From Eremomyces bilateralis CBS 781.70 (lineage: Eukaryota): 20,000 nucleotides of DNA. Where the stretch lies: assembly GCA_010015585.1 (NCBI GenBank), contig ML975157.1; one strand, given 5' to 3'. The stretch's first letter is position 1; the number at the start of each line of letters is the position of its first letter. Shown in pieces: positions 5,403-20,000 of the stretch. The notes beneath the pieces were generated by a model. It saw only the letters and a program-made list of their open reading frames with translations. It did no database searches and was not told where the DNA came from. Made by a program: the position numbers and the translations under genes.

Positions 5403-5789
5403 TGTTTCTTAAGTTGTTTCTTAAGTTCTGTGACACGGTATGGAGCGGCTATCAGATGAGTGGTTGTATCGTCGACACTGGGGTCCGGGAGGCGAAAGTG
5501 ACGTGATGGTGTATTCTCCGATAATGAATTGATCAGGCTGGATAAGGGAGAGGCAATTGATTTCGGCTTGTATGAACCCCGGTAATATTAACTAACTAAG
5601 TTGTCCCAGTTGCGTGTCTGCGGAATATTGGGCGGTAAATGGTAAGAGCGGTGACAGCGAGTACTTACAGCCTGAGATACGGTGTCCCTCATTCACGTGG
5701 TGTTGTGATGCTGCTGTTGCGACCCTGGTGTTATCTATGTACTGTCAGGTACCATAAATAGTAATGATGTCCCATAATACACTGGAATA

Positions 5790-5903
5790 TCCGCGCCCCT
5801 GGTTCGTCAGCTGAAGCTTACCTCATCCACACTGTGGACGCTAGACCCTTAATCTAGCGCCTACACTCTAAACGATAATGTCGTCTAAACGATAACTTAA
5901 TAC
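5790..5903 (+). repeat. Left terminal inverted repeat of the pogo element (114 bp)
   Basis: Reverse complement of 7390-7493 with 4 substitutions and one indel of about 10 nt. Contains TAAACGATAA twice (5869-5878, 5886-5895). Confidence 0.93.
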
Positions 5904-5954
5904 ATACTCCGCGCTATGAAGTTTATAGATACCAAAATTCCATCACCAACACTA

Positions 5955-7340
5955 CTATTCATCTCCAAATCGACATCGCCAGATAGGATCAAGCCTCATG
6001 CTTCCGATTAAGCGCGAAATCTCTACATGTATGTCCTTGAACGCCTTCCGGTGGTTGATTTGGCGTGTCTTCCAGCCCCTAACCCATTTGTCCAATTCGG
6101 CCTGTTTCTCGCGCGCCGTGCGCTCCTTTATCATAGATCTAGCTTGTTGTGAAGTAATATATCCCATTTCGGACCGGAGAACACGTTTGTTGCCTCGTTG
6201 TCGTGCCGCACGTGCTTGGGATTCCGCCATGTTGGCCTGTATCGTGTGTGACAATTGCTCGGCTTGGAGGGCGAATTGGAGGCTACCGTTGAGGCTGCTA
6301 TCGAAGTTTTGCACAAGAAGTGGTGGTAAATTTAGTTTCTCAATGTTGGCTAAGCACCATCGTACATGGTTGCGTGGCGTGGCATAGTCTTTCGTTGGGG
6401 AAAGTAGCCGCTGAATATCGGTGTCTGGAGGTGGCGTTTGATCTCGAATTCTAGCACTATGATCGTATGCTGTAAACGCGGCATCGATTGCCATCTTATC
6501 CTCACGGAGTTGGCGTAAAATCCGCTCAGGATTGTGAGGAATAAGGCCTGTTTCTTTCCATCCCTTTATAGTTGTTCGCGTCTTGAAAGTGTTCGTACGG
6601 ATCGACTCGAGTGCGGCCAGAAATTCCACTCGATTAAATTGCGTGCAGCCAGTGCGAGTGGCTGCATCGACGGCCTCTGCATGCCAGTGTTTGTAAGGCT
6701 GAAATGGGCCGACATCAAGCGGCTGGAGGATGTGGCTTGTATGAGGCGGAAGACGAAATGGTATAACGTGGTGGGCTTCGAGTATCTCGAGGAACTCCTT
6801 CGTGCAGTGGCTATCGAAACCATCGAAGAGTAAGAGTCGGTATTTACCGCGTTGATGCTTAGACGAATGCTTAATAAAATGCCTTGCGTAGATTAAGCTA
6901 ATTTCGTCGTTGTTAAAGCCTATTTCAGAAAGGCAGACCGCATAGTCATCGGGTAAGTTTTGGAAGTGTTTCTCGAGAAATGCAGATCCAGGTAGAATAA
7001 TGAGAGGCGGTATAACTGTACCATTACCACTTACCGCTTCAACAGCGGTAAGTGAATCTCGACATTCTGGAGATGGAATATACTGCTTTTTACTCGGGTA
7101 GAATGAAATAATCTATTGGTGTTTGCCTACACCGACGCGGAAGCCAGTCTCGTCGAAATTCCACATGTCCTCGGTCGCGATTCCGTGTCGGATCTTAATA
7201 TGGTATAGCTGCTCAAACCATCTCTCGAGAGCCTGGATATCATGAGCAGCTTTACGATTAGATCAAGTACACGTGCTTTCCGTGCATAGACCTCTGGCTC
7301 TCTAGATTCTAGATTCAATAGCATCATTATTTTTCGGCAT
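5955..7340 (-). pseudogene. pogo/Fot1 DDE_1 transposase pseudogene
   Basis: ATG at 7340 (MPKNNDAIESRI*). Catalytic motifs WNFDETGF, LLLFDGFDSH and LPPHTSHILQPLDVGPF with 35 residues between the second and third Asp. Premature TAG at 7304-7302 and 7115-7113, frame breaks near 7298 and 7260, N-terminal HTH region missing. The C-terminus is ORF 6629-5955. Confidence 0.92.
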
Positions 7341-7389
7341 AATGGCGGAGGATAAATAGGCTTAACTCCGCTTAAGGAGACTCGAAGCT

Positions 7390-7493
7390 GTATCAAGTTA
7401 TCGTTTAGACGACATTATCGTTTAACTAGATTAAGGACCTAGCGTCCACAGTCTGGATGAGGTAAGCTTCAGCTGACGAACCAGGGGCGCGGA
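7390..7493 (-). repeat. Right terminal inverted repeat of the pogo element (104 bp)
   Basis: Inverted match to 5790-5903, followed by TA. Confidence 0.93.
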
Positions 7494-7603
7494 TATATCC
7501 GCACCTCTGGTCGTGCCGTCGTGGCCGTGATATAGCGATCATGACTAAGCAACATGTCGTGGGCCAAGAACGGACCCCTGCCAAGAACCCCTGCACATCC
7601 CAT

Positions 7604-7841: not shown

Positions 7842-10626
7842 ATGGCTGCTCTTCATGAGTCGCCCTTGTCGCGGGAATCGCTCATCTTCTCCTCGGTTTT
7901 CTCCTTGTCGGCTGCAACACATACCACTCCGACGCCGCTGTCAACCCCCGACCTTGGGAGCATCGAACCCGGCCAGTCATTTGGCGGCGTGTTTGGGTCC
8001 AACCAACCCTCCCAACAACAATCGGCCGCGCAGCGACAAGTGCGCCGGAATTTGGCATGGAGCTCGGCTACGAGGTTTTTGGGGCAATTTGCCTTGGAGG
8101 ATGCCATGAAAGGCCGGCCGACGGAGTTGCGGGGCATGCCGTCGGATGTACGAGATGCTATGGAATTTCTCCTTATGGGGGGAGGATGTCCACTGCCGGA
8201 GAGCAACGAGGAGAGTCTGGTATGGCGAATGGATTAGATTGGATGGAAGTCAAACTGACGTGGTCAAGGTGGACTGGTACACCAATGAAGCGCTGCGGAG
8301 ATTCGTCGTCGACATTAGCCCCGAGTTGACGACGAAATGGCGAGCTGTAAGACCAGTCGGATCGTCCAGAATTCCCATACTAAAGCGAGTCTTATTGTAG
8401 GACTTTGACGAGCACTCTACCTGGCATATCTTGATATACACCACAAGCAAACTTGTTCAAGCCCATCGACACTTAGCTCAGCCATTAAAGGACATCCTCC
8501 TCCCAATCATCTCTCGTCCATCGAGAAGAGCAGACGACGCCATCGAAGCCCTCACGACCCTCCCGATTATCTCGAGGTTCAACCGAGAACTCCGCGCCGC
8601 CTTCGTTCAGGCAGTCGATGCGGGACGTTTTGCCGAGTATCTAGAACACCTACTGGTCGACACCGGTCGGAAGCTATTCTCGATCGAAGGACGTGGCAAC
8701 GAGAATGGGGAAGGCCCAGAATTGAGCCGCGAAGAGAAGCAAAAGATTCGCGAACGGCTTACGACTCTCTTACGAGGCATCGGCTCTATAGGGCTTGGGG
8801 GGGACAAGTCTACGTGGGTAGTTGGTGCTGCAATGGCGAAATTGCTCGACAATTTCGTAGACAGCCGCCACATGAAAGTTGATTGGTACACGCGGAACTC
8901 TGTGGTGCGCACCTTGAAGCACTGGGTCAAGGAAGGTTACATGAGATATTTCCAAGAAATTATGGCGTGTCTTGAAGTGGAGTCGGAAAGTGGTCCTCAA
9001 CCATCTTCAATCCCACCCGCATCGTTGCAGCGGTGCCAAGAGATTGCCATCAACCGTCTGGGAAGAGCACGAGTGGCGGATCTGTTCGATTTCATTGTGA
9101 GGTGGGATGGGTCACTTGGCGCCATCCGGGATCTGAAGGAGTACATCACTCTCCCTGGTGCTCGTGTTCATCTTACCCACAGCTTCTCCCGCCAGTTGTC
9201 AAGGCGGTTGCTACATGCCGGAGCGACAACAAGTGACATTCTCGACGTGTACGTCTATATCATCAAAGCATTCAACGAGCTTGACCCGAAAGGCGTTTTG
9301 TTGGATCGGGTCGCTCGGCCAATCCGTCGTTACCTGAAAGATCGGGACGACACCGCTCGTATCATCGTAGTCAGTCTGTTAAAGGATGTCGACGAGATCA
9401 TCGCGGATGAGAAGACAGGAAGACTCGATATAGGAGGAAATGTGTCCAAGCAGATTGCGCTGGAAATGAAATATCCCTCGGCACACGCCTTGCAAGAGCA
9501 GGACTATGACCTGGATTGGGGGAATATGGATTGGACTCCGGACCCCATCGATGCGGAACCGGAATACAAGCGATCCAAGTCGTCCGATGTCATCGCCTCC
9601 CTCCTGACGCTCTACGACCGGGAAGATTTCATCACCGAGCTCAAGGACATCCTGGGCGAATATCTTCTCAAGTACGAAGATTCCGACTTCGAGAAGGAGC
9701 AACGTCTCGTCGAGCTCTTCAAAGTCCGCCTAGGCGAAGACAAGATGCAAGCATGCGAGGTGATGCTTCACGATGTGCTTGAATCCAAGCGGATAAACCG
9801 AGACATCAACGCATCTATCAACCGCGAGAATGTTAGGCTCGGTTCGGAGCTCAATGCCCAAATCCTCTCGAGCTACTTCTGGCCCCCGCTCCGAGAGGAT
9901 GCGTTCCGTGTCCCGCAACCTGTCCACGCCCTTCAGCAACGATATGCAGCTGGTTTCGAGGGGATTAAGGATATGCGTCGGCTTCAATGGTATCCAGCAC
10001 TGGGCCAGGTGGAAGTGGAGTTGCAGCTCCAGGACCGCGAATGGCGTGGAGATTGCCATCCATGGCAAGCCAGTGTTGTCTACGCATTCGACGAGTCAAT
10101 CTCAAGCATTTCAGGTCTTGAAAACGACCCGGGCCGTAGCACCACTCCAAGTAGGACGGTTGAGGAACTTAAAATCATGCTTCAAATGGACGAGCAGCTG
10201 GTCTGCAATGCTCTTCAATTCTGGACCGCCCACCGTGTTCTTGTCGAAGTCTCACCAGGGATTTATGAGGTTCAAGAGACTCTCCCTGCGGACGGTGGAT
10301 CATCAGGAGACAAGGCAGGTGGAAGCGGGAAGTCGGCCAGCCGCACCGCTCCACCACTACACACGGAAACAGGGGCGCATGTGTCGGCCGTGAAGAGCCA
10401 GGAGGATCGGTTGATGGAGAACGTGGACATTTACCGGCACTTCATCGTGGGCATGCTGACGAACCAGGGAGCCATGCCCGTGGCGAAAATCCTCATGATG
10501 TTGAAGATGACCATGCCCGGTGGTTTTCCTTTCGGCATGGAGGAGGTGCGGACGTTGCTAGGACGATTAGTGGAGGAGAGAAAGGTGGTGGGACAGGGCG
10601 ATATATATTCGGTGTCTAAGGGATGA
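7842..10626 (+). CDS. APC2: Anaphase-promoting complex subunit 2 (cullin-like), about 893 aa
   Basis: Exons 7842-8219, 8269-8346, 8401-10626 (introns 49 and 54 nt). Diagnostic RLLHAGATTSDILDVY...LDPKGVLLDRVARPIRRYLKDRDDT, WTPDPIDA, CEVMLHDV, ILSSYFWP cullin-homology motifs and a C-terminal winged helix (FIVGMLTNQGAM). Confidence 0.95.
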
Positions 10627-13398: not shown

Positions 13399-15275
13399 AT
13401 GGGCAGCGCCGATGGGGTGTGCAAATCCACTGCTAATGCAGGAAGTCCTAAAGGAGCAGCTCAAGGTTTGTCCCAACGAGACATTCAATCTTGTTCTATT
13501 TTTACTGACCCATTTCCTAGTCTCTTTCAATGCCAACTGTCCAGAGGACGAACTATTTGATCTGGAGCGCAATGTAGAAGTTGCGCGGCACGAAGAGGAG
13601 CTTCAGAAGTTCCTCTCATCCACGGAATGGCCGAAACAATGGAAAGCCTGGGGTTCCTTGTTTGGCTGCTTCTTCCTCATGTTCAACTCTTGGGGCCTTG
13701 TGAATGCCTACGGCACATTTTCATCTCATTATATGCAACACCTAATGCCAAATCGGAACTTACTCCAGCTAAGCACGATTGGAAGTACCGAGAGCTTCTT
13801 GATTTTGATCTTCTCCGGCATCGTTGGTCGCGTGGTCGACGCTGGGATGGCAAGACAGCTGACTATCATTGGAAGCATATTTGTCACTATGGGTATGCTG
13901 TCACTGGCCTTCTGCGCTGGTGACGGCAAATTCGGACAAGGGAACTTCACCTCGATTTGGGTTTGCCAGGGTTTGCTTCAAGGGTTAGGAATGTCTTGCT
14001 TCTTTGTGAGCAGCTCGCAAAGTATGTTCCGAAGCATCATAATTTATCGTCTCGTTGTCTTGTTGCCTCCCGTCCACACGCTTACGGTATCTTTGGAATA
14101 GTCGGATCCTCTTGGTTCCCTTCCGTACGGAAGTCTTTCGTGGTTGGAGTAGTCGCTTCAGGGGCCTCCATTGCTGGGTTCGTGTATCCGATTCTTACCA
14201 AGTTTCTTCTCGGTCCCCTTGGTTGGCGAAACACTATCCTGTGTGTTTGGGCTGTCGTCTTGGTTACTTGTATCGTATCATGCATCTTCTGTGTCCCTAA
14301 CCCACTTCACATGAAGCGTCGGCCGGAGAAATGGCAGACATGGCGTGCGTTCGTTGATTTGGACGCTTTCCATCATCGAGGATTCAACTGTCTTACAGCT
14401 GCGACTTGCTTCATGTTCTTCGGATTCTATGTTGTGTTCTTCAATCTTGAGGAGGTATGCCATTCGCCTTCTTCTCTGCGGGGGTTTTGAACTAACTCTC
14501 CGCAGTGGGCCGCACTCCACGGTTTCGGCTACAAAGACCATGTCATTGGTCTTGACGGCCAGGATGAGCCCGTTCGACACCCAAAGGCTCTCCGCACTTT
14601 CTACCTTCTAAGCATTATGAACGGTAGCAGTGCCGTTGGTCGTATTGGTTCTGCTTACCTTGGCGACAAGTCTGTCTTTCTATTGGTAGTAATAGCGGAT
14701 CTGAGCTGACACCTGACAGGATTCCCACTCCACTTATTCATATGACAGCCACCGGTATCTGCTCTCTCCTGTGTCTCGTCGGCTGGATCCAGGTCGACAG
14801 CGTAGAAAGCACGATTGCCTTTGTCGTGTTATTTGGTGTATTCTCCGGTTCCGTCATTGGCCTCCCTCCAGCCAGTATGGGTTGGATCCTCGGAAAGCAC
14901 GCCGAGGGCCAGCGTCGACTAGGACATTGGGTTGGTTTGATGTACACGTGCTCCGCAATCCCCGCATTTGTTGGACCGATGATTGCTGGTGTCCTTGTGT
15001 CCTACTTGAGAATCTTTCTGCCTATACAGCTATGGGCCGGCATTTGTCTTGGAGTGAGCACAGTGTTCATGTTAGCGGCATGGCATTACGGGAGGCAGCA
15101 TCATGAAACGTATCCCGATACTCCAGTTGTACCAAAGGGCACGACATCCACATCCACTTCTGCTACTGCTTCATGCGCTCCAAGCGTGTGGGCCGACGAT
15201 GAGGAGAAAGAGCAGAAGCCGAGTGATGGAACTGGTGCATCCCAGGTGAGAACCAACACAGGGAGGCTCCGATGA
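13399..15275 (+). CDS. MFS transporter, monocarboxylate porter (Mch5-like) family
   Basis: Exons 13399-13465, 13545-14021, 14102-14454, 14506-14669, 14720-15275, with frame kept across four GT-AG introns. Motifs AWGSLFGCFFLMFNSWGLVNAYGTF, GRVVDAG, QGLLQGLG, GVVASGASIAG, IMNGSSAVGRI, FGVFSG and many hydrophobic segments. Substrate unknown. Confidence 0.88.
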
Positions 15276-15370
15276 TCCGCCTAATGGGTAATCTGATTCC
15301 TATTCAACGCAACAAGGAAAAATAGTAACTAATAAAATAGTAACTAATAAAATCAGACAAAAACAAAAAA

Positions 15371-15489
15371 ACATACAGCAATGGGAGTTCCCACGTGGTC
15401 ACCCACCGTAGTACTATTCCATCTCTAACCTGCTTGAGTACGGCAGAGCGGACGGGATGCCCTATATTCAGGTTGATATGGCCGTATGT
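15371..15489 (-). rRNA. 5S rRNA gene, complete (119 nt)
   Basis: Minus strand ACATACGGCCATATCAACCTGAATATAGGGCATCCCGTCCGCTCTGCC...AGTACTACGGTGGGTGACCACGTGGGAACTCCCATTGCTGTATGT. 5' ACATACGGC pairs with 3' GCTGTATGT, followed by a T-run Pol III terminator. Confidence 0.96.
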
Positions 15490-15557
15490 AGCAGTAAGTG
15501 AAACTTTTCACAATATCAACCTAGCAATCTGCAAAATTCAACAAAACAAAAACAAAA

Positions 15558-15592
15558 ACATACAGCAATGGGAGTTCCCCTATGGTCTCCCA
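15558..15592 (-). pseudogene. 5S rRNA fragment (3' 35 nt plus terminator), truncated at putative Starship insertion site
   Basis: Plus strand ACATACAGCAATGGGAGTTCCC is identical to 15371-15392, then CTATGGTCTCCCA versus ACGTGGTCACCCA in the full copy. Similarity stops abruptly after 15592. Preceded by a similar CAAAA-rich terminator. Confidence 0.88.
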
Positions 15593-15705
15593 GCGGTATA
15601 AACGAGGTCGAAAACAGAGGGCCAATACCGCCGAAAGACGAGGGCCCGTCGAAAATACATTCTGGTAAGGATCGTAAAGATGCCCATTCTCCCTAGTTTT
15701 CCAAT

Positions 15706-15784
15706 CTCGCTCTCAGTCAGGAGTCCTGTTCGCAGTTTCTACAGTCTCGCCCTCAGTCCGGAGCTCCGTTCGCAGTTCTACAGT
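15706..15784 (+). repeat. Imperfect tandem duplication (40 + 39 bp) upstream of the recombinase
   Basis: CTCGCTCTCAGTCAGGAGTCCTGTTCGCAGTTTCTACAGT followed by CTCGCCCTCAGTCCGGAGCTCCGTTCGCAGTTCTACAGT. Confidence 0.85.
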
Positions 15785-15888
15785 ACCCTTCTTCAGTTCC
15801 AGTTCCATCAGGTTCGGAGGTAGTCGACGCTATCAACGCTCCACGCAGCCAAAATCCTCGACGCCTATTCCAAGATACGTCTTTGACT

Positions 15889-18372
15889 ATGGCGCCACGA
15901 CGCACTATTAAAAAGGGCGAAGCCGGAGAACAAGAGGCAAAGGAGCGTCTAGCTGGCTTCCAGAGCAAGCCCCTCGACGATACGGTCCCAGTGTCGGACA
16001 GAACTACCTACAAGCGCGGCTACGCCATGTGGCTCTTCAAGGAGTACGAAACACCTGGACTTATCATGCCTATGACCTACACTCACATCCTCTAGATACG
16101 TTCGCGACGTCCTACACCGCGAGCCGGACGATACCTGGTTATCCCTTTGCAGCTCTTCACCAGTGGAGGTAGCCTTGGCTCAGGATACATGTCGTGCCTT
16201 TCTCCAGACCTATGTCTCCGACTCTTCGGTCTCCCGGGTTGCGTTGGGAGACCAAGAATCCGAGGAGGTCCGACAGGTTAATCGAGTATCAAGCGTCCTG
16301 ACAGTCTGGAGAGCTCTTGTGCAGGAAGGAGACGAAGCAGTCCTTGCCCCCAAAAGAAGAGAGAACAGGCACGCCGCGAGGCAATGGAGGCTCGTCAATC
16401 CAAGTGGAAAACTGATTTCAGGCCCCGTATGGGAGGTTTCCAATGTGAGGTCTGCCCTCTATTTGTGCGGGGAAGGATACTAACGTCCCCGTAGTGGATT
16501 GTCCACGACCTTCCTTTGCTTACCGGTATCTCTAACGAACTCAAGCGCCAAAAGCGGGCTGCGACTGCTCAGGATATAGTAGTCATTATGCAGGCTCTCC
16601 TAAATCGACATCGCGATATCCTCCACTCTACGGCACAACTTAGCGACTTCGCTATGATCGTGCTCTGTATGGCTATTGGCGGATTCCGGACTAACTGTCC
16701 TAGAAACCTGAAGTATGCAGACGTCAGGATAGGACTCGCCAACGTTGGCGGGAAAACGAACGCGTTCGTACGAATCCGAATGCCAGAAAACAAACTGCGA
16801 GTGGCTTCCCTAAAGCCTGCGAGCCCGGGGCGCGAGTTTGCCGTGGCCATTTTACCATGCCGACTGGTATGCCTTGCGAGTCACGTCATTGGCCGCGCTC
16901 TAGCACGGCGTGCTTTCAGGGCCGGATATACGTCCTTTGATCAAGTTTTGACCTGGCCCAACCTTCGAGGTTGCAAAGTCCTTTTCCTTCCTTGGGCACA
17001 AGGCCTGGGCGATCTCCCATTCGTCGATATCAGCGGGTCGCAGTTCTACAGGATATGGTATCGCTGCTGCGAAGTCGCCGGCATGGAGGATCCTCCGATC
17101 CCCTACTCTATGCGTGTCGGTTCCGGGGGCAAAATTATTGGAATTCTCGGCGAGTTGCTTGGGAATTGGATGCTTATGCACAAATCGAATACTCACCAGG
17201 AGTATTATTTCCCGGATTACGTGTCTCAGAATCTAGCGCGTGTCACGCTGGGCGTGCTCGCGCCTCCTGAAGATGCCCTTTTCTCCCTTCTGTCGGACTT
17301 ATCATCCACGGCGGATCCCTTTGCCCCATGCCACCTGAGTGAAGAAGAGTTTAAAAAGCTTCTTGAGAGACGAGATGTCCAAGCTCTTCAGGACCATAAG
17401 ACAGGACAGCGCAACCTATTGGACCAGTTATCCTACTTAGCTATTCGAGAGAAGCGGGAGAAATACTTTCGCAATATGGAAGATGCACGGGCGCTGGGTG
17501 GCAATATCACCATTACCGAGTCGCAGATTTCGAACAGCGACGTCATCGTTGATGCAACCCCCGTTGATGAAGAAGGCCGGGCTTCATTTATTGAGTTACT
17601 GGCTAGCTACTCCCGCCTTTTGAAGAGAAGCAAGAAGAATGACCCTAACCGAAACGTTCCAGATCTATGTCCTCGGTCTATCTGCGTTCTTTGCGATCCG
17701 ACTGGGAAGGCTTTATCTTTCTCACAACATTCGTCTCTCACCAGGCACTATCGGATCATACATTTACGGCATGGTCACCTAGACGAAATGCGCGAATGCC
17801 CAGTTCCTGGCTGCGGCTTGGCTATTGACGCGGGCGTATCTCCGTTTTACTGTCACTTAGAACGCCAGCACGGCAAATACTATACGCCCGCTGCTCATCG
17901 ACACATCGAACGTTCAATCTGCGTCCTTTGCGATCCGACTGGGCGTCGGTTGTCCTTTTCCCAGCGCCAGAATTTGACAGCACACTTTAAGGCTGATCAT
18001 CTACCCTTGGGACATCTCGATCAAGCTCGTCAATGCCCAGTTCCTGCCTGCGGGTCAAAGATTCAAGCTGGAATACAACCATTTTGCGATCACTTGCAGC
18101 GCACGCATGGGAAGCATTACACGCCTCATCTATGCAACAATGGGTTAAAGCAGCGTGAACATCATCGATCGTATAGGCGAGTTCAACCAACATCCGAATT
18201 TCAGAAAAAGAGCGCAGTTGCAATTAGAGCAAAACGGAAAGCAGTTGATGATATTGGGAGGCCCGACTTTGATCTGCTCGAGCAAACGCTCCAGGACGAA
18301 ATCTTTGCTGTAGATTCGGATGAAGACCCGGTTGCGAAGAAACGAAAGCAAAACGTAGTTGCAGATTATTAA
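15889..18372 (+). CDS. Tyrosine recombinase, DUF3435 Starship captain-like, with duplicated C-terminal C2H2-type zinc-finger module, about 793 aa
   Basis: Exons 15889-16043, 16096-16444, 16495-18372 (introns 52 and 50 nt, CTCAC/CTAAC branch sites, frame kept). Recombinase motifs in order: GGFR (R), ENK (K), PYSMRVG (YxxR), LMH (H), EYY (Y), plus LVCLASHVIGRALARRAF and DPFAPCHLS, which resemble DUF3435 proteins. Confidence 0.82.
17674..18126 (+). repeat. Intragenic tandem duplication (237 nt / 79 aa period) of a double zinc-finger module
   Basis: RSICVLCDPTG...LTRHYRIIHL...CPVPGC...HLERQHGKYYTP from 17674 and RSICVLCDPTG...LTAHFKADHL...CPVPAC...HLQRTHGKHYTP from 17911. Confidence 0.92.
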
Positions 18373-18779
18373 AGAGTTCTAAGTTGGGCAACAGTTGATA
18401 TGTTTGACAGCATCAGAATCATTCGGCTCGTTAATGAATTTGGATATAACCTAGGAGGAAATTGCAGCGTAACTCATTCCCTTCCGACCTTCGATGCTAT
18501 GATATTTATAAATCATCATCGGAGAGTCGCTGAAACGCCTTCATCTGCAAATACATGGCGTCACGATATTGTTCATGAGAAGAACCCGTCTCCCGCGACG
18601 AGATCGATGATGTACAAGCTGACTTAGCCTCCCCTCCATTTAACGGGAGGACACTCGGTTCTATTGGGGAACTTGCCAAAAATCCAATGCCATGGCTTGC
18701 CTTCTCTTTCTTCAAGCGCTATTCATACACCGGCTCTCACCGCAAATATCTCCGAGTATCGATACCTCATGATAGTCAT

Positions 18780-19351
18780 CTACATTAATAGTCGCATAGC
18801 CCAGGTCACAGTGTTCGCCTCACACTTCGTACCATCCGCCATCGTCATCGGCGTCGCGCATCCCCAGACGCATTGCCCAAACGTCGTCCCATCGATGCAG
18901 TAAAATCCGGTCTCCGAGCATGGGACCTGGCCGGCTGCGCATGAACCTTGCGGATTAGCGACAGGGGCGGCAGGAACAGGCTTGGCCGGAGCAAGTGGCG
19001 GTTGGGCTGCCGCGAGCGAAGGTTTTGAAGAGACCGGCGCAGTAGTGGGGACTGCGAGTTGCTGCTCAGGAGCAGCGTTAGAGGGAGAGGCCGAGGGTGC
19101 GGCGGAAGAGGCACCGGGAGCGAAGACTCCACCGGGGGGATTGTTGCCAGCGGGAGCCTTAGCAGCGCCGCAGTTCGATGGGACCGCGATTGGGAACTGA
19201 GATTGAGCGGGACCAGCTGGCTTCTTTGTAGTGACGTACTTCCCTGGGTTGGGGAAGTCGACGTTCACGGATTGAGTGGTCCCGCAAGATCCGGAAATCT
19301 CGCCGATGTTCGCGACGAACAGAGGCGGAAGCTCATTGAGCTTGTCTTGAC
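18780..19351 (-). pseudogene. 3' part of an AA11-like lytic polysaccharide monooxygenase (end of catalytic domain, P/A/S-rich linker, Cys-rich X278-like module), interrupted by a hAT insertion
   Basis: Frame extends upstream of ORF 19268: QDKLNELPPLFVANIGEISGSCGTTQSVNVDFPNPGKYV, matching the AA11 LPxxFVANI...C.T....FPNPG pattern. Ends with CSETGFYCIDGTTFGQCVWG...MADGTKC. The frame is cut at the hAT terminus at 19352. Confidence 0.75.
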
Positions 19352-19365
19352 TAGAGGTCCGAAAC

Positions 19366-19497
19366 GAATATGAATAATATGAATAATATGAATAATTTGC
19401 GAATATGAATAAAGTCTTGGCGAATAATGTGAATATGAATACGCCTTATATTCATATTCGCGATATTCATGAATATTCATATTATTCATGAATATTT
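19366..19497. repeat. Subterminal direct and inverted GAATA(T) repeat array of the hAT element
   Basis: Multiple GAATATGAATA/ATGAATAAT units, then inverted ATTCATATTC units and palindromic ATTCATGAAT. Confidence 0.85.
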
Positions 19498-19770
19498 CAC
19501 ATAGATCTAGGCAAATAAAATTATAACATCTAAAGCCTCATTACTATAACATGTCAAGGAGTGCTTGGGACTGTTAATATAATAATCAAGGCGTAGATAT
19601 ACTGTCGATGTTCATTTGGTCAAAAACTAATAGTCTGAATACATTAGATATATGACAAGTCGCCAAAGAAAGAAAGGAAAAATAAAAGAAAAGTAGATAT
19701 CGTAGTATATCACTATCCCCGTAGTTCTCTATGCATTCCTAACGGCCATGAAGAGTCCTAAAATAGACTA

Positions 19771-20000
19771 TCAATTAGGAAAGGATTCGTTATCATAGTG
19801 TCCCTTCAGGAGTACAAGCCATCTCATCGTCTCTGCATTCAGAGAGTGTCTCCTAAGACCTAGCACGTCTCGCGCACCACTAAAAAGACGTTCTACGCCT
19901 ACTTCAGCAGAGGGAACCGGGAGATAGTCGCGTGCCGCTTGAGCCATGCAAGGAAAGTCAGGTGCATTTGCTTTCCACCATTTCAATACCCAGTCAGGGT
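19771..20000 (-). CDS. hAT transposase C-terminal dimerisation domain (partial)
   Basis: WVLKWWKANAPDFPCMAQAARDYLPVPSAEVGVERLFSGARDVLGLRRHSLNAETMR matches the hATC consensus (WW...FP.....A..YL..P......ER.FS......R..L). Confidence 0.93.
   Translation of the reverse strand, partial: PDWVLKWWKANAPDFPCMAQAARDYLPVPSAEVGVERLFSGARDVLGLRRHSLNAETMRWLVLLKGHYDNESFPN

Follow-up and report, generated by a model that had tools for sequence, protein, structure and literature searches.

A probable captain-side end of an Arwing-family Starship element in a tandem 5S rRNA gene pair of Eremomyces bilateralis

Starships are mobile elements that carry entire sets of genes from place to place within a fungus and from one fungus to another, and their known landing sites include 5S ribosomal RNA (rRNA) genes. 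In Eremomyces bilateralis CBS 781.70, a 20,000-nucleotide (nt) stretch of contig ML975157.1 (assembly GCA_010015585.1), referred to here as the window, holds a broken 5S rRNA gene followed by a gene for a DUF3435 tyrosine recombinase, the captain of Starships, and the question that this locus raises is whether a Starship begins here. We consider it probable that the locus is the captain-side (5') end of an Arwing-family Starship element lodged in the second unit of a tandem 5S pair. An earlier note, made from the letters of the sequence alone, had proposed the left boundary of a giant, cargo-carrying and perhaps still mobile Starship-like transposon in a 5S gene; of this proposal, the DUF3435 captain lying first and inward from a truncated 5S gene stands, while giant size, cargo and mobility are conjectural and the far end of the element lies outside the window. 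The background that the note had given, namely a DUF3435 captain as the first Starship gene and several families that target 5S genes, is right, because the definition and the 5S targeting both stand in the relevant parts of PMC9156397 and PMC11162782.

The broken 5S gene and the captain

The first unit of the pair, at 15370-15489 on the minus strand, is a complete 5S rRNA gene (Rfam RF00001, 88.2 bits against a gathering threshold of 38, model positions 1-120). It lies on the host side; an MFS-type transporter gene, ending at 15275, has its stop codon 95 nt before it. The second copy begins 187 nt further than the first, with a spacer of 67 nt (15490-15556; repeat family D12) between the two units. 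Its right part belongs to the broken unit as an A-rich 3' flank, of which about 24 nt recur beside the intact gene (15346-15369 versus 15535-15558, 79%). What follows the spacer is the 3'-terminal 23 nt of a second 5S gene on the minus strand (15557-15579; repeat family D2), identical to the intact copy at 23/23 positions (blastn-short E 2.9e-08 within the window). From 15580 to 15595 the match to 5S falls to 10/16, and beyond 15595 there is no 5S similarity. The second gene is cut to its 3'-terminal 23 nt, or to 36-39 nt when the poorer match beyond them is included.

The mismatches, 0/23 and then 6/16, are unevenly spread (Fisher p = 0.0025), and the host/element boundary lies somewhere within the 16-nt junction zone at 15580-15595. 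This zone can be read in two ways. The crossover may have fallen at 15579/15580, in which case the 16 5S-like nt would be an attachment-site arm of the element that resembles its target. Alternatively, the broken gene may be a variant 5S copy with the boundary at 15592-15596. At this second site the window reads CCCA-GCGG, and a copy of the junction in a public sequencing run (X3, described below), whose loose end falls at 15392, reads CCCG-GCGG; both are close to CCCG/GGGC, given as the Arwing insertion core motif in PMC11162782, although a match of four letters carries little weight.

Between the junction and the captain start codon lies the sub-terminal leader of the element (15596-15888, plus strand), the part of the element over which summed contig depth peaks. 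It carries GTCGAAAA at 15607 and again at 15648, as well as a 40-nt tandem repeat at 15697-15776 (two units, 80% alike). The number of these repeats differs among genomic copies (joints 15719>15777 and 15737>15804), and the repeat could be a binding array or a promoter element of the element.

The captain gene itself spans 15889-18372 on the plus strand in three exons (15889-16043, 16096-16444 and 16495-18372), which are separated by GT..AG introns of 52 and 50 nt. The spliced coding sequence translates exactly to a database protein of 793 residues, P152DRAFT_347678 (P0001 in our set), which the annotation of E. bilateralis CBS 781.70 calls a hypothetical protein and whose contig is 812,791 bp long. 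Its start codon lies 297 nt past 15592, or 294-310 nt from the junction, and the gene reads away from the 5S gene. DUF3435 (PF11917) matches residues 195-492 (58.9 bits; cut-off 25.8; E 5.7e-16) and is the sole Pfam family above its cut-off in this protein. No joint that fits the removal of either captain intron was seen among the 15 of 26 contig joints listed; in one contig of X3, a run only guessed to be RNA, intron 2 of a diverged copy is still in place. A Crypton, a tyrosine-recombinase transposon of conventional size (a unit of a few kb without cargo), was considered as well and set aside on the recombinase, as DUF3435 is the only Pfam family above the cut-off and the published catalogue files the gene among captains; in the captain tree of PMC11162782, CryptonF serves as the outgroup root.

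These results bear on several claims of the earlier note. Its 5S copy broken near the captain is borne out by the second unit, which is exact for the 3'-terminal 23 nt and has no 5S likeness past 15595. Its placement of the break at 15592 fared less well: the break exists, but perfect identity already ends at 15579 and 15592 lies inside the weak 16-nt zone. The tyrosine recombinase gene that it had seen pointing inward about 300 bp from the junction proved to be an intact three-exon gene, and the profile check that it had proposed for the spliced protein returned the PF11917 match given above.

Since a phmmer search of the recombinase part against PDB sequences gave 0 matches at E <= 10, a comparison of folds was needed. 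An AlphaFold model of the captain built from 37 sequences (mean pLDDT 77.4, pTM 0.65) found Cre (1crx_A), XerH and lambda integrase as its best PDB matches (Foldseek E 1.7e-4, prob 1.0, TMt 0.58). Residues 30-424 of the model superpose on Cre 28-341 (VIA-align Z 13.1, root-mean-square deviation 4.4, 278 aligned residues), and therefore the core-binding and catalytic domains are both present. R233, K268, Y372 and R375 are invariant in 8/8 sequences, and in a set of 37 sequences at least 90% retain Y372, R375 and Y406. We predict that R233, K268, Y372-x-x-R375 and Y406 form the catalytic pentad R-K-H/YxxR-Y, an assignment made from motif order and the end of the Cre alignment rather than from residue-level superposition. 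The central motif of this captain is YxxR, and YxxR in place of HxxR is reported for captain clades 1 and 3 in PMC11162782. The same paper names HhpA, of Hephaestus, as the one Starship recombinase with functional validation, reportedly by a transposition assay in a heterologous fungus.

The gene has been catalogued before. Table S3 of PMC11162782 lists erebil1_347678 with the tag 'tyr', a predicted Starship tyrosine recombinase, at scaffold9 802643-804690 on the plus strand, and in Table S4 its family is fam09, where it clusters at 90% identity with erebil1_510855. The same source gives the name Arwing, in clade 3, to family number 9, and the captain gene is accordingly assigned to Arwing by these published tables; the published reference tree comprises 1222 captains. 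Three of the 15 size-filtered captains of this genome are fam09 (347678, 510855 and 455447), the others being fam01, fam02, fam03, fam05 or unassigned. According to Table S8, this single genome for the species has 15 recombinases and 0 elements called. The earlier note had left it undecided whether the element had been described; as far as these tables go, the recombinase gene is catalogued in fam09 and the element itself is not. A full-text literature search returned no paper that joins Eremomyces and Starship.

The niche of the family agrees with the locus. In the parts of PMC11162782 that deal with insertion sites, 5S rDNA holds 23% of 222 curated Starship insertion sites, insertions of Enterprise, Arwing and Voyager are mostly in 5S rDNA, and there are at least five distinct 5S target sites. 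By the definition of Gluck-Thaler et al. in 2022 (PMC9156397), target-site duplications bound a Starship region, and a DUF3435 gene lies at the 5' end of that region. In the window, the captain at 15889 is the first gene from the boundary and points inward.

Sister copies in the genome

We aligned the contigs of four public sequencing runs to 14000-20000 of the window. X1 and X2 derive from the DNA of a single sample, X3 may be RNA, and X4 carries another organism code. Depth was added up across contigs with a likeness of 80% or more; such totals do not give copy numbers and served only to show repetition and partial copies. The left flank is single copy, with a depth of 240 in X1 and 168 in X2. 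Relative to this flank, summed depth is 14-25x at 15608-16210, 6-12x at 16211-17014 and 3-7x at 17015-18220, and it stays at about 3x up to 18823. The leader and the captain gene are repeated in the genome, and many of the copies are partial, with internal deletions marked by joints such as 16028>16387 and 17060>17568, among others. X4 contigs cover nothing but the 5S gene and parts of the captain, the latter short and weakly matched, and they leave the flank bare.

In X1, the differences from the window include 145 C>T and 139 G>A changes (284), versus 69 A>G and 62 T>C (131). This excess of C>T and G>A changes in the other copies looks like repeat-induced point mutation (RIP), judging from the pattern of differences. 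The same tendency is seen in the closest annotated sister copy, P0151 (P152DRAFT_510855, 874 residues, on a contig of 2,395,525 bp), which is identical to P0001 at 733/793 positions. Its substitutions are, by eye, mostly those expected from C>T or G>A changes (for example E>K, G>D, H>Y and A>V), and it has one gap of 32 residues in which parts of fingers 3 and 4 of the zinc fingers described below are gone. Other annotated captain fragments are degenerate: P0002 (379 residues, frame-broken, 86% identical over the matched stretches), P0152 (110 residues) and P0016 (216 residues).

The gene model of P0151 starts too far upstream, inside a 5S rRNA gene, and therefore translates the DNA to the left of its captain. 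Along this N-terminal extension come a 5S gene's 5' end, then the right-hand portion of the spacer, then the 5S tip, and lastly ~80 nt from the beginning of the element. The translations of the tip and of the element start do not differ from those of the window. P0151 thus has the same junction, but it also has the same left neighbourhood. A second model that seems over-extended, P0153, downstream of the window captain, starts inside the AT-rich end of a hAT element.

Further junctions were found among the contigs. One contig each in X1, X2 and X3 joins the 5S tip (15370-15392, in the coordinates of the intact gene) to element sequence. In the X3 contig, the 13 nt next to the tip show 8 differences from the window, and the 17 nt beyond these match the element start at 16/17. 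The same 5S junction is present at least twice more in the genome. In addition, 8 X1 and 3 X2 contigs begin to fit the window at 15547/15548 and have unlike, A-rich sequence before this point; their extent into the element is not visible. These contigs suggest insertions in other 5S genes, several of them at one position.

The recurrence of the left neighbourhood fits either of two explanations: 5S pairs with this spacer may be a common landing site, or the unit that was duplicated or moved may start to the left of the broken 5S gene. In a further, weakly held and doubtful reading, the intact 5S gene and the spacer would travel with the element as a spare copy; the copy on scaffold 1 (captain at 2,372,446-2,374,238) has both of them too. 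Coordinates are published for three copies of the captain lineage, on scaffolds 1, 6 and 9; by Table S3 of PMC11162782 and the scaffold lengths, each is 8-22 kb away from a scaffold end, and this position fits either assembly breaks induced by repeats or regions near chromosome ends.

Downstream features and rival explanations

Past the captain, the window holds a remnant of an AA9-type gene (lytic polysaccharide monooxygenase, LPMO) at 18783-19351 on the minus strand. The annotated protein (P0153, 225 residues) has only the linker and the Cys-rich C-terminal domain, and the catalytic N-terminal half is cut off. Its relatives are 397-449 residues long, and PF03443 is found at the front of 2/9 of those found. 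The remnant has no fitting start codon, the annotated model beginning within AT-rich repeats. At 19351/19352, paralogue contigs continue into coding sequence, while the window turns to a repeat at 14-38x the flank depth and enters the end of a multi-copy hAT-type transposon (19352-20000, minus strand; repeats D3, I9, I12 and I15-I17). A hAT element therefore cut the AA9-type gene. The C-terminus of its transposase is recognisable as Dimer_Tnp_hAT (PF05699) at 19774-19998 on the minus strand (E 7.9e-11). The accessory-type gene past the captain and the nested transposon that the earlier note had described are accounted for by this C-terminal remnant and by the hAT-type element ending inside it, respectively.

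Just inside the hAT end, at 19365-19495, a GAATATGAATAAT-like unit recurs in AT-rich repeats, both direct and palindromic, which are probably subterminal binding sites for the transposase; Rfam matches to a plant miRNA family within them are weak and at chance level (E 0.52). A second copy of the AA9-type region exists at ~97% identity (404 nt with 11 differences), on a contig that is not linked to a captain copy. Among the annotated proteins there is no uncut AA9-type paralogue, the best match outside the window gene being 49% identical. Summed depth in X3, the run that is possibly RNA, reaches 855-1866 at 18623-19024, compared with 55-130 elsewhere; it comes from a paralogue of the AA9-type gene that seems highly represented in this run.

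If the locus is the 5' end of a Starship, its history would be that inferred from characterised members of the group. The recombinase would have recognised a short 5S motif and integrated the element by site-specific recombination, with a crossover within 15580-15596. Integration would have left the 3' tip of the 5S gene on the captain side and the other 84-97 nt at the far end. The element family would then have multiplied in the genome, most copies decaying by deletions and RIP-like C>T and G>A changes, and the window copy would be the best preserved among the annotated copies.

Several observations weigh against this interpretation. The earlier note had proposed a search downstream for the complementary remainder of the 5S gene on the minus strand, and inside the window there is none: Rfam finds no further 5S piece in 15200-20000 (E <= 10), and blastn-short with the 5S gene and 7-nt words finds none beyond the 23-nt tip in the whole window. 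Neither a right end nor a second 5S piece is thus present in 15200-20000, and the far end is outside the window. Arithmetic from the coordinates in the catalogue tables of PMC11162782 puts the scaffold end ~6-6.5 kb past the window, and therefore an element that ends on this scaffold would be at most ~11 kb long, below the 14.6 kb of the smallest Starship among the Table S1 rows listed; the scaffold, number 9, probably breaks inside repeated DNA. The 1.6 kb past the captain are without the Starship companion genes DUF3723, FRE, PLP and NLR and hold only the AA9-type remnant and the hAT element. Summed depth drops to 1.3-1.5x the flank at 19025-19225, and the depth sums are, by the tool's own warning, not true copy numbers. 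The published scan in PMC11162782 called 0 elements in this genome. The unevenness of the 5S likeness, 23/23 and then 10/16, leaves the exact boundary unfixed. Lastly, the P0151 copy shares the spacer and the upstream 5' end of a 5S gene, as a duplication of a block would.

The main rival explanation is a smaller unit. A solo or compact captain-only element, or a derelict Starship stump, would be a unit of ~3 kb without cargo, from 15580 to ~18500-18800, consisting of the leader and the recombinase gene, and the AA9-type gene and the hAT element would be its ordinary neighbours. The depth profile would suit such a unit, peaking over the leader (14-25x), standing at 3-12x over the gene and reaching 1.3-1.5x at 19025-19225, and so would the loss of similarity at 18500 in one diverged copy (88% alike) and the many copies with internal deletions. 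The catalogue in PMC11162782 called 0 elements here, and its authors allow that some captains may be 'solo'. However, a complete 3-kb insertion in a 5S gene needs the remainder of that gene, and none is found up to 20000. The second copy of the AA9-type region is moreover ~97% identical, near the likeness of the captains themselves, so that the duplicated block may extend past the captain, although the contigs are not linked. On balance, we regard a captain-only unit as rather unlikely.

Duplication of a segment, possibly near chromosome ends, would dispense with a recent site-specific integration altogether, as the duplicated block would already have contained the 5S pair and the captain. Since P0151 shares the left spacer and the upstream 5S gene, it fits this explanation as well as a second insertion. 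Its N-terminus keeps the order of the window (5S 5' end, spacer, 5S tip, element start), and the three copies with coordinates lie 8-22 kb from scaffold ends by the published tables. Yet a third junction has the same 5S tip with a different 13-nt stretch, and the 11 contigs that start at 15547/15548 (8 in X1 and 3 in X2) have unlike preceding sequence, pointing to other flanks. Block duplication as the whole explanation therefore seems improbable to us. Hardest to credit is a chance adjacency, in which a 5S pseudogene merely happens to lie beside a DUF3435 gene, resident or domesticated, that belongs to no mobile element. Pseudogenes of 5S rRNA are reportedly common in filamentous fungi, as Rooney and Ward are said to have described in 2005, but the same junction is present in at least three copies, the orientation and the distance of ~300 nt fit the captain rule, and family 9 is among those reported in PMC11162782 to target 5S rDNA. 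The Arwing-family Starship end in the second 5S unit is the reading that we prefer.

Zinc fingers, neighbouring genes and known systems

The captain carries four C2H2-type zinc fingers at residues 565-713 (17683-18129, plus strand), C-terminal to the recombinase core; a motif scan places them at residues 565-591, 603-627, 644-670 and 682-713. They form two pairs, and a 237-nt repeat in the DNA (D4) mirrors this pairing. The profile of the captain family matches the zinc fingers of CTCF when compared with PDB (E 8.4e-08). We picked 36 aligned relatives from the 149 matches listed besides the query, out of 328 at E <= 0.001: 23 have at least two C2H2 motifs (two, four or six), 2 have one and 11 have none. 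TFIIIA is a zinc-finger factor that reads 5S rDNA, and zinc fingers guide the rDNA-specific R2 retrotransposons. It is conceivable, though doubtful, that the paired array is a module that steers the captain recombinase to the 5S gene by reading 5S rDNA directly. A passage of PMC11162782 names a zinc finger for the Enterprise captain alone. If the fingers do find 5S genes, a giant transposon of eukaryotes would choose its target by a separable module, which could be tested experimentally. The locus offers a defined recombinase with four zinc fingers and a defined DNA target for testing how elements find 5S genes.

The left part of the window is marked as ordinary core genome by an APC2/cullin-type gene at 8401-10626 on the plus strand (TPR_ANAPC2, ANAPC2 and Cullin domains). 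In this core flank, outside the Starship-like part, a short transposon at 5787-7496 has long terminal inverted repeats (71 nt at 96% and 36 nt at 97% complementary) and encloses a 385-residue frame with a DDE_1 (pogo/Tc1-type) endonuclease domain (E 2.3e-11). An open frame of 817 residues at 1-2451 on the minus strand runs off the start of the window and has no Pfam match.

The locus adds a Dothideomycete from outside the well-studied genera, with an intact family-9 captain in a 5S pair and several decayed sister copies, in a genome in which the automated scan published in PMC11162782 had called no element. It fits the current picture of Starships and changes nothing in it. The nearest captains outside this genome, among the matches listed, are 28-34% identical and come from Sordariomycetes. 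A search for metagenome relatives of P0001 gave 56 pattern matches, 0 of which were confirmed by tblastn.

The closest comparison is with the Arwing Starships themselves, as treated by Gluck-Thaler and Vogan in 2024 (PMC11162782). The window captain shares with them the fam09 placement, the YxxR motif and the 5S niche. Their core motif CCCG/GGGC is close to the point where 5S likeness ends, which reads CCCA in the window and CCCG in the X3 copy. In contrast to those elements, the window copy is known from the captain side alone. Anig_Starship1 and Awel_Starship1, of Aspergillus niger and A. welwitschiae, are marked 'targets 5S' in Table S1 of PMC11162782. Their curated 15-nt direct repeat starts with ACATAC and, by eye, is the reverse complement of the 5S 3' end; in the window, too, it is the 3' end that remains next to the captain. 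They measure 75-81 kb with both ends known, and their repeat of 15 nt compares with 23 exact 5S nt in the window.

Voyager of Macrophomina phaseolina resembles the window locus in having a DUF3435 captain at its 5' end and in the insertion of every copy in a 5S gene, as described in PMC9156397. Its site differs: measured from the 5' start of the gene it lies at 20 bp, and the repeat is GCCCTGTATTCT, whereas the break in the window lies 23-39 nt from the 3' end, and PMC11162782 assigns Voyager to family 10 and the window captain to family 9. Osiris, an Enterprise-family element of Aspergillus fumigatus, likewise inserts specifically in 5S rDNA and fragments the gene, and 5S clusters are its insertion hotspots (PMC12153272), just as the target in the window is a 5S pair. 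The Osiris captain belongs to clade 2 and has HxxR, unlike the YxxR of the family-9 captain in the window, and Osiris has segregating insertions with empty sites (PMC12153272), whereas the element in the window is known from one genome.

Beyond the Starships, Cre, XerH and lambda Int have the two-domain fold in common with the window captain at a sequence identity of 12-14%; the captain differs from them in being eukaryotic and in its long C-terminal extension with zinc fingers. The bacterial integrative elements that target tRNA genes, a parallel drawn in PMC9156397, follow the same logic of integration into a conserved small-RNA gene.

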